This document shows positions 2,460 through 54,008 of a stretch of 64,000 nucleotides of DNA, piece after piece. Position 1 is the first letter of the stretch. Each line of letters begins with the position of its first letter. Below the pieces are notes generated by a model, which had not been told where the DNA came from, ran no database searches, and saw only the letters and a list, made by a program, of their open reading frames with translations. This DNA comes from an uncultured Bacilli bacterium (GTDB lineage Bacteria; Bacillota_I; Bacilli_A; RF39; UBA660). A program made the position numbers and the translations under genes. The stretch lies in the NCBI GenBank assembly GCA_947632455.1, contig CANRPK010000002.1, forward strand, positions 16,683 to 80,682, read 5' to 3'.

Positions 2460-2828
2460 GGGGTAGTTTATGGTTTCGACATATATTACTAGGTATGATT
2501 GCAAGTGGGCGTGACACCTTAAGTCTAAAATTAAAATTAAATGACAAGAATGAAAGTTCTTTTGCTTCAAATGCTTTTGCATTTGCCTAATTAATAATAA
2601 GGAATAGCAAGCTTCTAAGTAATTTTCTTATAGGTTATTTAGAGGTTCATATATATAAGATATACTACTATATTTGATTAGGATATTGTAGTGAATATTT
2701 TACTAATCTAGTTATTTTATAGGTTGGTCTTGAGCCAGTAAAATAATAAAATTTAAATCAAGCTAAACTTGTAGATGTTATATCATAGGGTATATTGGAC
2801 AGGGGTTCAACTCCCCTCTACTCCACCA
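2460..2828 (+). ncRNA. ssrA: tmRNA (SsrA), 369 nt
   Basis: 5' GGGGTAG pairs with the 3' CTACTCC-A-CCA, including the G3:U identity pair. T-arm is GGGGTTCAACTCCCC. The internal tag ORF GAC..TAA (2543-2590) encodes (A)DKNESSFASNAFAFA. Upstream promoter is TGTTATAAT (2441-2448). Confidence 0.93.
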
Positions 2829-2869
2829 AATAGATACCAAACTCGAAAAAATCCGAGTAAAAATAGAAA

Positions 2870-2896
2870 ACGTACTTGATAAAAGTGCGTTTTTTT
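2870..2896 (+). terminator. rho-independent terminator of ssrA
   Basis: ACGTACTT-gataa-AAGTGCGT hairpin followed by TTTTTT. Confidence 0.7.
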
Positions 2897-2938
2897 GTTA
2901 TTATGTATTTGTCAAGGAAACTTGCATAAAATAAAAAA

Positions 2939-3022
2939 GGAACATTCAATGTCGCATGTTGAGTGTTGCCATATAGTTTGCATCACCTAAATCATTGCTG
3001 AGTTAGGTGATTCTTTTATTTT
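2939..3022 (+). ncRNA. putative antitoxin sRNA A (convergent, overlaps the toxin 3'UTR and stop codon)
   Basis: Upstream TTGTCA (2909-2914) and TAAAAT/TAAAAA (2927-2937). Hairpin 1 is AACATTCAA (2941-2949) with TTGAGTGTT (2959-2967). The terminator hairpin is ATCACCTAA (2982-2990) with TTAGGTGAT (3003-3011), followed by a TCTTTTATTTT run. The exact 5' end is uncertain. Confidence 0.45.
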
Positions 3023-3099
3023 AGGATTACAAATAGTAATACTATAAGTAAAAGGATAATGATAATCAAAAAGAAAATTAGAAAATCTTTTTTTGACAT
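3016..3099 (-). CDS. putative type I toxin A, 27-aa hydrophobic peptide MSKKDFLIFFLIIIILLLIVLLFVILK
   Basis: Too short for the ORF track. ATG 3097-3099 lies 7 nt after GGGAGGTG, and the stop is TAA. Composition is a charged N-terminus (KKD) followed by a continuous hydrophobic helix. A paralog sits at 3463-3546. Confidence 0.6.
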   Translation of the reverse strand: MSKKDFLIFFLIIIILLLIVLLFVILK

Positions 3100-3161
3100 C
3101 TTATCACCTCCCTTCAATTAAGAAGCTCGGCAATCACCCAACTATTAAATGTTCCAAATTA

Positions 3162-3190
3162 ATTATATCAAACTTTTGTTCTTAAAACAA
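3162..3190 (-). promoter_or_regulatory. promoter of toxin A
   Basis: Minus strand reads TTGTTT, a 17-nt spacer, then TGATATAAT (extended -10). This leaves a ~55-nt 5'UTR. Confidence 0.6.
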
Positions 3191-3379
3191 TATGCTCTAT
3201 AAAAATTTATGACAATTTAAAAACTATAAATAAATAATGATCGCTATAAACTAACAGATTGTCGTACTCTTGCCAGTGTCATTTTTATTAGATCTATTAA
3301 AACTCATATAGAGAACTTGCAAAAAGATCTTTTTTATGTTATTATGTATTTGTCAAGGAAACTTGCATAAAATAAAAAA

Positions 3380-3464
3380 GGAACATTCAATATGCTAATG
3401 TTGAGTGTTGCCATATAATGTGCATCACCTAATTCAAAGCAGTTGAGTTAGGTGATTTTCTTTT
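3380..3464 (+). ncRNA. putative antitoxin sRNA B
   Basis: Same upstream block as sRNA A. Hairpin 1 is 3382-3390 with 3401-3409: same stems, different loop. The terminator hairpin is ATCACCTAA (3424-3432) with TTAGGTGAT (3448-3456), followed by TTTCTTTT. Confidence 0.45.
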
Positions 3465-3546
3465 ATATTAAAACTATAAATAGTAATAATACTAATAGGA
3501 AGATAAGAATGATTAAAGATAGAATTAAAAAATCTTTCTTATACAT
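3463..3546 (-). CDS. putative type I toxin B, 27-aa hydrophobic peptide MYKKDFLILSLIILIFLLVLLLFIVLI
   Basis: ATG 3544-3546 follows GGGAGGCG, and the stop is TAA. It is a paralog of toxin A; the shared M-x-KKDFLI start and all-hydrophobic body persist despite many nucleotide changes. Confidence 0.6.
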   Translation of the reverse strand: MYKKDFLILSLIILIFLLVLLLFIVLI

Positions 3547-3608
3547 ACTATCGCCTCCCTTCAATTAAGAAGCTCGGCAATCACCCAACTATTAAATGTT
3601 CCAAGTTA

Positions 3609-3637
3609 ATTATATCAAACAAACGTTCTTTGCACAA
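3609..3637 (-). promoter_or_regulatory. promoter of toxin B
   Basis: Minus strand reads TTGTGC, a 17-nt spacer, then TGATATAAT. Confidence 0.6.
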
Positions 3638-3755
3638 TAAAAATCGATATCAAAATTGGCATTTTCAAAACCAGAAAAATACATAGATTATTTAATTAAT
3701 ATAATTATTTTAAAAATAATGTTATAATACATGATTAACAAGGAGAAATGATAAA

Positions 3756-4748
3756 ATGGTTAATTTAAAACATGAACTTACAGTAGATGATTTAATCGTA
3801 GAGTATATGATATATAAAGTAAATAATGGATATGAACCTCAATTTTCCACATCAGAATTTATAAACTTTCTATACTTTTTTACTAGTAAAATGCCCGTTA
3901 AAGATGCATTATATGAAAATGAAAAATTATTTAAAAGATTTTTTGAAAGAAAAGCCGAAAGTGATTGGGCTCACACTATAGATTGGCATACACATAAACA
4001 AGAAATAATTCCCCATATGGATATGATATATAATGAAGATAATGATGATTATATCATAAAAGCTAATTATCGATTAAGTGATTATGACAAAAGCCTATTA
4101 AATACTTATTTTATAGATAATGGCATGAGCAAATTTGAAGATTTTCAAGGAACAGCTGCAAAAATTAGAAGTATTATTGGCAAATATTTATTAGATCAAC
4201 CAAAAAGAAAAATAGATGAGACTACGGCTATTGATGAACATTCTTTAAACGTTGGTAAGTATGTTACTGCCGAACTAATTAGAAATATTTGGAGAAGTCA
4301 TATAAATAGACTAATTGACAATCATAAATGGCCAGAACAATGTAAAGATATTGATAAATACTTATTTACTATAGATTTAGCTGAAATTATTGGACTTAAC
4401 TCAATAAAAAAAGACTTATTAGATTTTTATACAGTGATTTCTAGAAGAATTGCAATTTTATATCAACAAGATAAAAATTTGAAAATCAGTAATTATGGAA
4501 GCTATTTGGCAAAAGCAAATTATGAATTATTAATCAAAGATTACCAACAAACATTTGAAATAGCTTTTGGAAAATATAAAAGTTCACTAAATATAGATTT
4601 AGCATCATCAACATTCAAAGAAAGTCATGAACTAAATGGTATATGTATGTGGGATGAAGAGCCCGAAATTAAAACTACAATTTCTCAAATTAAAAGTGAT
4701 AATGTCAAAAAATTAGTAAGATCTTTAGATAAACATACTCAAAAATAA
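3756..4748 (+). CDS. hypothetical protein (330 aa), no recognisable domain
   Basis: Long ORF behind AAGGAG, with promoter TGTTATAAT at 3720-3728. Predicted soluble. No motif I can assign. Confidence 0.6.
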   Translation: MVNLKHELTVDDLIVEYMIYKVNNGYEPQFSTSEFINFLYFFTSKMPVKDALYENEKLFKRFFERKAESDWAHTIDWHTHKQEIIPHMDMIYNEDNDDYIIKANYRLSDYDKSLLNTYFIDNGMSKFEDFQGTAAKIRSIIGKYLLDQPKRKIDETTAIDEHSLNVGKYVTAELIRNIWRSHINRLIDNHKWPEQCKDIDKYLFTIDLAEIIGLNSIKKDLLDFYTVISRRIAILYQQDKNLKISNYGSYLAKANYELLIKDYQQTFEIAFGKYKSSLNIDLASSTFKESHELNGICMWDEEPEIKTTISQIKSDNVKKLVRSLDKHTQK

Positions 4749-8709: not shown

Positions 8710-8785
8710 TGGCTGCCCTGGTTGGATTCGAACCAACGAAATAATAGGTTCAGAGCCTACCGCCTTACCGCTTGGCTACAGGGCA
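8710..8785 (-). tRNA. tRNA-Gln (anticodon CUG), CCA encoded
   Basis: Hand-folded cloverleaf. Acceptor is TGCCCTG/CAGGGCA. The anticodon loop CTCTGAA carries CTG. T-arm is GTTGG-TTCGAAT-CCAAC. Discriminator G followed by CCA. Confidence 0.9.
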
Positions 8786-44358: not shown

Positions 44359-44443
44359 TGGTGCTCATAGAGAGAATCGAACTCTCACGACCTAAGTCGT
44401 AGCATTTTGAGTGCTATGCGTCTACCAATTCCGCCATATGAGC
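44359..44443 (-). tRNA. tRNA-Leu (anticodon CAA), CCA encoded
   Basis: GCTCATA acceptor, a long variable arm (CGACTTAGGTCG), anticodon loop CTCAAAA, T-arm GAGAGTTCGATTCTCTC. Two hairpins follow at 44261-44323. Confidence 0.9.
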
Positions 44444-53934: not shown

Positions 53935-54008
53935 TGGAGGGGCCTACCAGATTTGAACTGGTGCTCGGGGAGTTGCAGTCCCATGCCTTACCACTTGGCT
54001 AAAGCCCC
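53935..54008 (-). tRNA. tRNA-Cys (anticodon GCA), CCA encoded
   Basis: Acceptor GGGGCTT/AGGCCCC, anticodon loop CTGCAAC, T-arm ACCAGTTCAAATCTGGT. Confidence 0.88.

Follow-up and report, generated by a model that had tools for sequence, protein, structure and literature searches.

To our knowledge, toxin–antitoxin (TA) systems of type I comprise a few dozen families, almost all of them defined in cultured Proteobacteria and Firmicutes. Twenty-four families are held in T1TAdb, and the hallmarks of their toxin mRNAs are a Shine–Dalgarno sequence (SD) paired with an anti-SD, stem-loops at the 5′ and 3′ ends and a long-distance 5′–3′ interaction (PMC8594479). Among the closest described systems, TxpA/RatA, BsrG/SR4 and BsrE/SR5 of Bacillus subtilis, a convergent small RNA (sRNA) has its complement in the 3′ part of the toxin mRNA (PMC8594479), as is predicted for the locus described here. 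This locus lies in a 64-kb stretch of DNA from an uncultured Bacilli bacterium (contig CANRPK010000002.1; the whole stretch is called the window, and positions are counted from its first letter), where the 0.9 kb following the transfer-messenger RNA (tmRNA) gene ssrA consist of two direct repeats, each with a minus-strand open reading frame (ORF) of 27 codons for a hydrophobic peptide and a convergent plus-strand RNA gene. We consider it probable, with good confidence, that each repeat is a self-contained type I TA-like cassette of a previously undescribed family. This was first proposed from the window alone (the sequence-only reading below) and is now supported by more than 100 relatives, which show constraint on the ORF, promoters and covarying hairpins with a strand-specific G·U bias. 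All of the mRNA hallmarks listed above are found in these cassettes. Within the known type I TA class we regard them as a new family whose regulatory arrangement is distinct. At the level of sequence comparison, the ORF, both promoters, all helices and the strand on which each helix is selected are demonstrated.

Two tandem modules behind ssrA and their relatives

The tmRNA gene (2460–2828, plus strand; ARAGORN, and Rfam RF00023 at 118.7 bits) encodes the tag DKNESSFASNAFAFA, and module 1 begins directly after its CCA end. The repeats, each of about 320 nt, span 2874–3192 and 3315–3639 and fall into three blocks according to the repeat search: 2874–2950/3315–3391 (92% identity), 2956–2994/3398–3436 (92%) and 3011–3192/3458–3639 (81%), with offsets between the copies of 441–447 nt. 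Pairwise alignment gives 90% identity over 341/347 aligned nt. A 37-nt block of the 5′ untranslated region (5′UTR) and a 54-nt block of the 3′ end each occur exactly twice in the 64 kb, where shuffles lead one to expect none, and nhmmer finds two copies only of the module in the window. Two tandem, unannotated modules directly 3′ of ssrA at an offset of about 441 nt, as the sequence-only reading had it, are therefore well founded, and the minus-strand layout that it described (a promoter with a 17-nt spacer, a GGGAGG SD, a 27-codon ORF and two hairpins with a T-run) is seen in both copies.

An exact search of a species-representative genome collection with an 18-mer from the 5′UTR returned ten loci, all in metagenome-assembled genomes (MAGs) titled ‘uncultured Bacilli bacterium’ and mostly from rabbit gut, and a gapped pattern holding 21 bases of the 3′ end returned at least 120 loci from a metagenome collection. 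Full-length homology was confirmed by nhmmer in 98 of the metagenome loci listed, which include human-gut and ground-squirrel assemblies besides those from rabbit. Pattern scans and nhmmer together gave at least 130 hits; de-duplication of the matches listed left at least 84 distinct complete modules, with 82 distinct mRNAs for the counts of ORFs and folds. Module 1 has no blastn match in the plasmid and phage collections, and the single match in a pattern scan of viral contigs, unconfirmed by nhmmer, was judged to be chance; a plasmid or phage origin is without evidence.

The peptide ORF is clearly constrained and, judged by its pattern of substitution, is a real gene under purifying selection. 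ORF 1 (MSKKDFLIFFLIIIILLLIVLLFVILK) runs from the ATG at 3099 to the stop at 3016–3018 and ORF 2 (MYKKDFLILSLIILIFLLVLLLFIVLI) from the ATG at 3546 to the stop at 3463–3465, both on the minus strand and preceded by the SD GGGAGG at 3107–3112 and 3554–3559, respectively; the second has an orthologous subgroup in four relatives (L028, L019, L050, L148). An uninterrupted ORF is found in 79/82 distinct mRNAs (96%). The family set holds 66 distinct peptides of 24–36 aa in two groups, group A, which includes the window copies (MxKKDFLI...LLFVILK, 24–27 aa), and group B (MKKRTFIIKVLRYISIILLLLTLLVLVIKK, about 30 aa), and all of them have a basic N-terminus followed by a hydrophobic stretch of about 20 residues. 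Pairwise dN/dS has a median of 0.19 in the 27-aa set and 0.32 in the 30-aa set and is below 1 in 99% of pairs; variability by codon position follows the order 2<1<3; of the alternative frames, +1 is never open and +2 gives ratios above 1; and the indels among copies are whole codons, with the SD spacing conserved. The sequence-only reading had called the conservation ‘regulatory rather than coding’: the regulatory elements are indeed conserved, but the coding sequence is not unconstrained, as the median of 0.19 demonstrates. Relatives in which the ORF is broken while the repeat is kept would have told against a coding role, and such cases are exceptional: four family copies (L116:2057–2411, L142:25–392, L073:82–450, L159:1499–1862) keep the RNA elements and have a damaged ORF, with a stop at codon 4 or with the ATG changed to ATA or ACG, one of them with a run of 17 A after the lost start.

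The peptides could not be placed in a named family, as the sequence-only reading had also found, and neither Pfam and NCBIfam nor Rfam holds a family that matches the cassette. The window peptides gave no hit to any model of Pfam or NCBIfam, no chain was matched in a PDB profile search with the peptides, and 40 representative peptides matched no Pfam/NCBIfam toxin model at E≤1 except HokA (E=0.1, 2/40). A concatenated peptide query returned only five unnamed, N-terminally extended calls from a set of 5.8 billion proteins; gene callers hardly ever pick up the peptides, and the family escapes protein-based annotation. No Rfam family exceeds its threshold on the window module. Two sub-threshold matches to copy 1 were judged to be chance, namely Enterococcus sRNA_1300 (RF02862, 2884–3018, copy 1 only, 20.9 bits against a gathering threshold of 48.8, E 0.045), to which 16 other family loci give no hit at E≤1, and BsrG (11.2 bits against 55, E 9.6), which is likewise not found in the 16 other loci. 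Literature searches found no description of this cassette family.

Both strands carry a promoter. For the mRNA, the minus strand has TTGTTT-17-TGaTATAAT at 3162–3190 (predicted start G3155) and TTGTGC-17-TGaTATAAT at 3609–3637 (predicted start G3602); across the 84 modules the TTG is conserved at 99/99/90%, the −10 element at T90 A98 T88 A89 A63 T98% and GG at +1 at 99%. For the antisense RNA, a promoter scan found TTGATA-17-TGtTATTAT on the plus strand at 2876–2904 (TTGATA 2876–2881, TG 2896–2897, TATTAT 2899–2904; 10/12 plus the TG) and TTGCAA-17-TGtTATTAT at 3317–3345. The antisense promoter columns, none of which lies inside any search pattern, are conserved in the family as follows (TTG 100/100/96%; TG 100/92%; −10 T/A/n/n/A/T 100/100/−/−/99/99%), and a purine at the antisense +1 (2911) is kept in 99% of members. 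Both are predicted promoters of the sigma-A type and, at positions outside all search patterns, show the column conservation of real ones. The plus-strand promoter named by the sequence-only reading, TTGTCA...TAAAAT, does not stand: its spacer of 12 nt is too short, a better conserved promoter lies upstream at 2876–2904, and TTGTCA belongs to a covarying stem-loop of the sRNA. The conservation of TAAAAT is partly imposed by the metagenome search pattern, and the motif is, besides, complementary to the U-tail of the mRNA. The antisense length of about 85 nt given with that promoter is likewise revised, to about 110 nt from a predicted start near 2911 (3352 in copy 2).

Structures of the predicted mRNA and antisense RNA

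The minus strand would give a toxin mRNA of about 228 nt from copy 1 (2928–3155, U-tail 2928–2938; fold −69.5 kcal/mol, z −7.9) and of about 234 nt from copy 2 (3369–3602; fold −68.4 kcal/mol, z −6.2), with a leader of 56 nt before the ORF and with the same predicted 5′–3′ closing helix. In mRNA 1 the 5′ end GGAACAUUUAAU (3155–3144) pairs with 2939–2950 and GUUGGGUGAUUGCC (3142–3129) with 2958–2970, and in the window folds the first 27 nt or so of the mRNA pair with both arms of its own terminator hairpin. The two minus-strand hairpins of the sequence-only reading are seen in the sequence, the distal one with its T-run; that reading had missed this dominant closing helix. The helix is present in the minimum free energy fold of 81/82 relatives, and RNAalifold places it in the consensus obtained from the joined UTRs. 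When pairs were counted on 47 diverse UTR pairs, aligned with MAFFT after removal of the ORF, 90.7% of closing-helix cells were paired, as against 36–50% with the partner slid, and double-sided changes were found at 20/25 pairs, as against 10.4±1.3 in shuffles, with 0/500 shuffles reaching the observed number; the covariation score was 0.346 (control 0.205). In a separate count, the closing helices read on the mRNA strand gave a ratio of G·U to A·C of 169:21. Additionally, the duplex of the 5′UTR with its cognate 3′ end has a median of −34.1 kcal/mol, compared with −25.0 for non-cognate and −11.1 for shuffled partners, and the 5′ partner (GGAACAUU...), which lies outside the metagenome pattern, is yet complementary in the loci retrieved by the 3′ pattern.

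A second, local structure would hide the ribosome-binding site. In the window folds the SD at 3107–3112 is paired with an upstream anti-SD, GCUUCUU (3120–3126, minus strand; the whole region being 3107–3126). The pairing is GCUUCUU:AGGGAGG in the window and CCUCC:GGAGG in group B, and one relative has the compensated form CAUCU:GGAUG; the family median of P(unpaired) for the SD is 0.12. The fold models therefore contain the cis structures, SD/anti-SD pairing and a 5′–3′ interaction, expected to block premature translation.

On the plus strand, the predicted antitoxin sRNA 1 of about 110 nt (2911–3021; fold z −3.6, RNAalifold and pair counts) is made up of a 5′ stem-loop with a GAAA loop (2911–2925), an A-rich linker (2926–2938), hairpin HP1 (2939–2970), terminator hairpin HP2 (2982–3011) and a U-run (3012–3022), which overlaps the stop codon of the peptide at 3016–3018, as the sequence-only reading had noticed. 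The predicted sRNA 2 of about 115 nt (3352–3466; fold z −5.9, terminator scan) has HP1 at 3380–3412, its terminator hairpin at 3424–3456 and its U-run at 3457–3466. The TTGTCA discussed above is the 5′ arm of the small stem-loop GUCAAG-GAAA-CUUGC, which covaries (CAAG/CUUG, GAAG/CUUC, GAGA/UCUC), is stabler on the plus strand in 63 members as against 17 and most commonly has a GAAA loop. The sRNA hairpins are canonical in 98–100% on the plus strand, and the ratio of G·U to A·C on the sRNA strand is 65:24 in HP1, 48:7 in HP2 and 28:14 in the 5′ stem-loop; HP2 read on the mRNA strand gives 4:37. The same DNA is thus selected for a long-range helix in the mRNA and for local hairpins in the antisense RNA, and this opposite wobble bias of the two strands argues strongly, if indirectly, that each of them is transcribed and has a function.

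This evidence bears on another account, in which the plus-strand hairpins would be a mere bidirectional terminator for the peptide mRNA and for the tRNA or tmRNA genes, with the peptide regulated in cis only. Twenty-three of the 84 modules do lie behind tRNA/tmRNA genes, which need terminators, and pairing of the sRNA with the 5′UTR outside the overlap barely exceeds that of shuffles (median −18.7 versus −14.3 kcal/mol, with a 5th percentile of the latter at −20.5). We nevertheless regard this account as very unlikely, given that the upstream extended −10 promoter is conserved together with a purine at +1, that a separate terminator precedes this promoter, that the covarying 5′ stem-loop between the promoter and HP1 favours the plus strand, and that HP1 and HP2 tolerate G·U on the plus strand only, which requires selection on a plus-strand RNA.

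As a TA antisense RNA, the sRNA would be perfectly complementary to about 90 nt of the mRNA 3′UTR, comprising the U-tail, both hairpins and the stop codon, and cofolding of mRNA and sRNA yields a median gain of −96 kcal/mol. The fold model leaves the whole U-tail of the mRNA unpaired, and about half of the A-rich linker in the sRNA. Pairing of the sRNA with the 5′UTR is weaker than the cis 5′–3′ pairing in 78/79 members, and an Fst-like pairing of the sRNA with the 5′UTR or the ribosome site is not supported, being hardly better than in shuffles; a 7-bp match of copy 1, AUCACCU:AGGUGAU, is not kept in copy 2.

Likeness to known type I systems and a proposed mode of action

With the Bacillus systems TxpA/RatA, BsrG/SR4 and BsrE/SR5, to which the sequence-only reading compared the locus, the cassettes share, besides the convergent layout, an sRNA with its own promoter and terminator, a partly sequestered SD and, as the likely outcome, duplex-dependent decay of the mRNA. 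The 3′-overlap architecture of that comparison is upheld; the corresponding Rfam models do not match, those for RatA/SR giving no hits in the window or in 16 further family loci. The cassette peptides are unrelated and shorter (27–30 versus 30–59 aa), the antisense RNA reaches no further into the ORF than the stop codon, where the Bacillus ones overlap its 3′ part, the antisense target region is also the pairing partner of the mRNA 5′ end, and the cassettes lie behind tRNA/tmRNA genes or in core intergenic regions, not on prophages. Fst/RNAII (par of pAD1) and SprA1/SprA1as resemble the cassettes in being Gram-positive, in an antisense RNA that overlaps only the 3′UTR and terminator of the mRNA, in single-helix toxins of about 30 aa, in a 5′ structure that limits translation and in tandem or multiple copies. 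They have their functional pairing outside the overlap, at the translation initiation region (PMC8594479), where the predicted pairing in the cassettes does not exceed chance; the cassette overlap is of about 90 nt and contains two hairpins, and the Fst-type peptide models of Pfam and NCBIfam match none of the 40 family peptides at E≤1. Group A also lacks the charged C-terminal tail of Fst/TxpA-type toxins, in agreement with the sequence-only reading.

The 5′–3′ closure has its counterpart in hok/Sok (R1) and AapA1/IsoA1 (Helicobacter pylori), where it renders the mRNA stable and translationally inert (PMC8594479). There, the 5′ region is the target of the antisense RNA, which gains access to it only once the mRNA has been opened by trimming at the 3′ end, whereas in the cassettes it would target the 3′ segment of the closing helix, and 3′ trimming would remove this target. 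The cassette hosts are of Gram-positive type and the peptides are unrelated, with no significant match to Hok. We take the closure, as modelled, for a likeness of working and not of membership. Finally, the Ibs/Sib, ShoB and DinQ-type toxins are of 19–27 aa, nearly all hydrophobic with 1–2 charged terminal residues, repeated and unannotated. The cassettes are similar in having very short, hydrophobic, unannotated peptides in repeated copies, but the former are proteobacterial, Sib covers the whole ORF, OhsC and AgrB are divergent, and no sequence similarity was detected.

We propose that the minus strand would yield an mRNA of about 228 nt for a 27-aa single-helix membrane peptide, presumed to be the toxin, and that this mRNA would be kept inert and stable by the local hairpin hiding the SD and by the closing helix of about 25 bp forming a panhandle. 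The plus strand would yield the sRNA of about 110 nt from its own extended −10 promoter. Since nothing in the U-tail of the mRNA is paired and only about half of the sRNA's A-rich linker is, the linker may nucleate on the free U-tail, from where the sRNA would invade the closing helix. A double-strand RNase would then attack the long duplex of mRNA and sRNA (in the Bacillus systems this is RNase III, where the duplexes of RatA, SR4 and SR5 with their mRNAs trigger its cleavage), and the opened panhandle would expose the formerly protected 5′ end of the mRNA, with the net result that peptide synthesis is prevented. The strand-invasion route and the involvement of an RNase are what we infer from these models by analogy.

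Several points weigh against the TA reading or against parts of it. Transcription of both strands and toxicity of the peptide are features that we infer; every relative comes from MAGs or metagenomes, and since the scans fixed 18 nt of the 5′UTR and 21 nt of the 3′ end, conservation there is imposed by ascertainment. The dN/dS ratios are rough, being taken on 27–30 codons of low-complexity sequence. Covariation is likewise seen in the mRNA strand's local terminator hairpin (88% paired); this is a valid alternative to the closing helix, the two not being ranked by covariation alone, and may form, for example, during termination. Further, the models of the free, the sRNA-bound and the 3′-truncated mRNA all predict a paired SD, which does not account for synthesis of the peptide. 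Occlusion of the SD on sRNA binding is predicted for 33 family members versus 9, and the window copies show no change or the opposite; a translational switch upon sRNA binding is at most a weak family trend and is not supported by the models for the window copies.

In favour of the TA reading are a small hydrophobic peptide ORF with its own SD and promoter, a predicted antisense gene with its own promoter and terminator and complementary to the mRNA, and habits typical of type I TA loci: tandem same-strand copies (14/109 loci), occasional inactivated copies and ORFs that gene finders hardly ever call. The four inactivated copies and the heavy repression of translation give an indirect hint that the peptide may be toxic. 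The ORF constraint, promoters and structures are equally compatible with an antisense-regulated gene for a small membrane protein that is non-toxic (regulatory or accessory, for example) and whose level the sRNA would tune; nor does any toxin family match the peptides, and group A is without the C-terminal tail mentioned above. We hold this to be unlikely, in view of the several layers of repression on the peptide mRNA (SD hairpin and panhandle), the tandem amplification of copies and their occurrence in unrelated genomic contexts, the loss of the start codon or gain of a premature stop in some of them, and a modular, ‘selfish’ organization such as type I TA loci typically have and small housekeeping proteins seldom do.

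If the cassettes are type I TA loci, a large and structurally well-supported family would be added from uncultured low-GC gut Bacilli, one that joins the Gram-positive 3′-overlap layout to an mRNA closure of the Gram-negative 5′–3′ style and offers a natural test case for an antisense RNA acting by displacement of an intramolecular helix. The alignment of 84 modules suffices for covariance models with which to annotate MAGs.

Linkage to tRNA and tmRNA genes

A tRNA or tmRNA gene lies within 300 nt, and mostly within 10–40 nt, of 23/84 modules (27%), a lower bound given further truncated tRNAs at contig ends. It is always on the side of the sRNA promoter and co-oriented with the sRNA, the count on the other side being 0. 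The genes preceding modules are those for tmRNA and for tRNAs for Leu, Glu, His, Gly, Arg, Ala, Ser, Lys and Thr, and comparison of the junctions shows that homology of the modules begins a few nt from the CCA end of these different genes (e.g. L038, L041, L047, L057, L079, L120, L156). At ssrA, a small hairpin without a U-run, ACTCG-N8-CGAGT (2841–2858, plus strand), stands between the CCA and the terminator; near-identical hairpins follow tRNA-Leu (L038), tRNA-Glu (L156, L146) and another tmRNA (L041), and its recurrence after different genes suggests that the module has its left end here. The terminator hairpin and T-run that follow (2865–2895, plus strand; terminator scan) probably terminate ssrA and insulate module 1, and the −35 box of the sRNA promoter, TTGATA (2876–2881), sits at the apex of this hairpin. 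The same arrangement is found in 16/19 tRNA-adjacent modules versus 18/65 others.

A junction so close to CCA ends is what a non-coding repetitive or mobile element tied to tRNA 3′ ends would show, with the small ORF incidental; short tRNA-end-like remnants before some copies and assemblies that break at the repeat point the same way. This account has hardly any probability in our view, since 96% of distinct copies keep the ORF open although the peptides come in 66 different sequences, only the ORF frame has a dN/dS well below 1, indels are of whole codons with the SD spacing kept, and no inverted termini, target duplications or tRNA-end repeat at the far boundary were found.

The TA reading can be combined with such placement. 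It is possible, and we put it forward only tentatively, that one and the same 3′ segment would be contested by the antitoxin RNA and by the mRNA's own 5′ end, with strand invasion from a toehold of the A-rich linker on the U-tail opening the panhandle instead of a block at the ribosome site, and that the whole would be a miniature element of about 450 bp, without a recombinase of its own, repeatedly placed exactly at the CCA ends of diverse tRNA/tmRNA genes and supplying them with terminators that carry its own −35 box in the loop. An att duplication of the integrase type was rejected: a second copy of the ssrA 3′ end was not found in the 64-kb window, and tRNA-adjacent modules have no significant tRNA 3′-end repeat at their far boundary. 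Nor was an integrase found near the window modules. So strong a linkage poses a testable question, namely by what means cassettes this small move, or what keeps them at these sites.

To the left of module 2, the motif GTACTCTTGCCA (3264–3275, plus strand) resembles the ssrA 3′ end CTACTCCACCA by eye and may be a remnant of a tRNA/tmRNA end. With the bases that follow it (GTACTCTTGCCA|GTGTCA, 3264–3279), it resembles, again by eye, the ssrA end continued by the post-CCA sequence of relatives (CCA|GTGACG in L044 and L047), and an earlier insertion at this end may have left it behind. Similar tRNA-end-like motifs of 7–12 nt were noticed by eye before modules without a tRNA neighbour (L028, L030, L073, L085, L122, L155).

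No synteny was found between the window and the other carrier loci. Some copies are in ordinary chromosomal contexts; for example, one group-A module, on a JGI contig (L165:4001–4183), lies between gyrB and gyrA, which shows insertion into the intergenic regions of core genes. The window has three tRNA genes elsewhere, all on the minus strand (8713–8785, 44362–44443, 53938–54008), and none of them adjoins a family module. The ORFs flanking the ssrA region (1638–2030, 2030–2410 and 3756–4748) have no Pfam or NCBIfam match, and among the ORFs scanned no SmpB-type gene is adjacent to ssrA. Four metagenome contigs (L001–L004), from the same organism as the window, encode a protein of 330 aa identical to that of 3756–4748, and as all four end within module 2, the repeat breaks short-read assemblies. 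The spacer between the modules contains an AT-rich, near-perfect palindrome, TTTTATTAGATCTATTAAAA, at 3283–3302.

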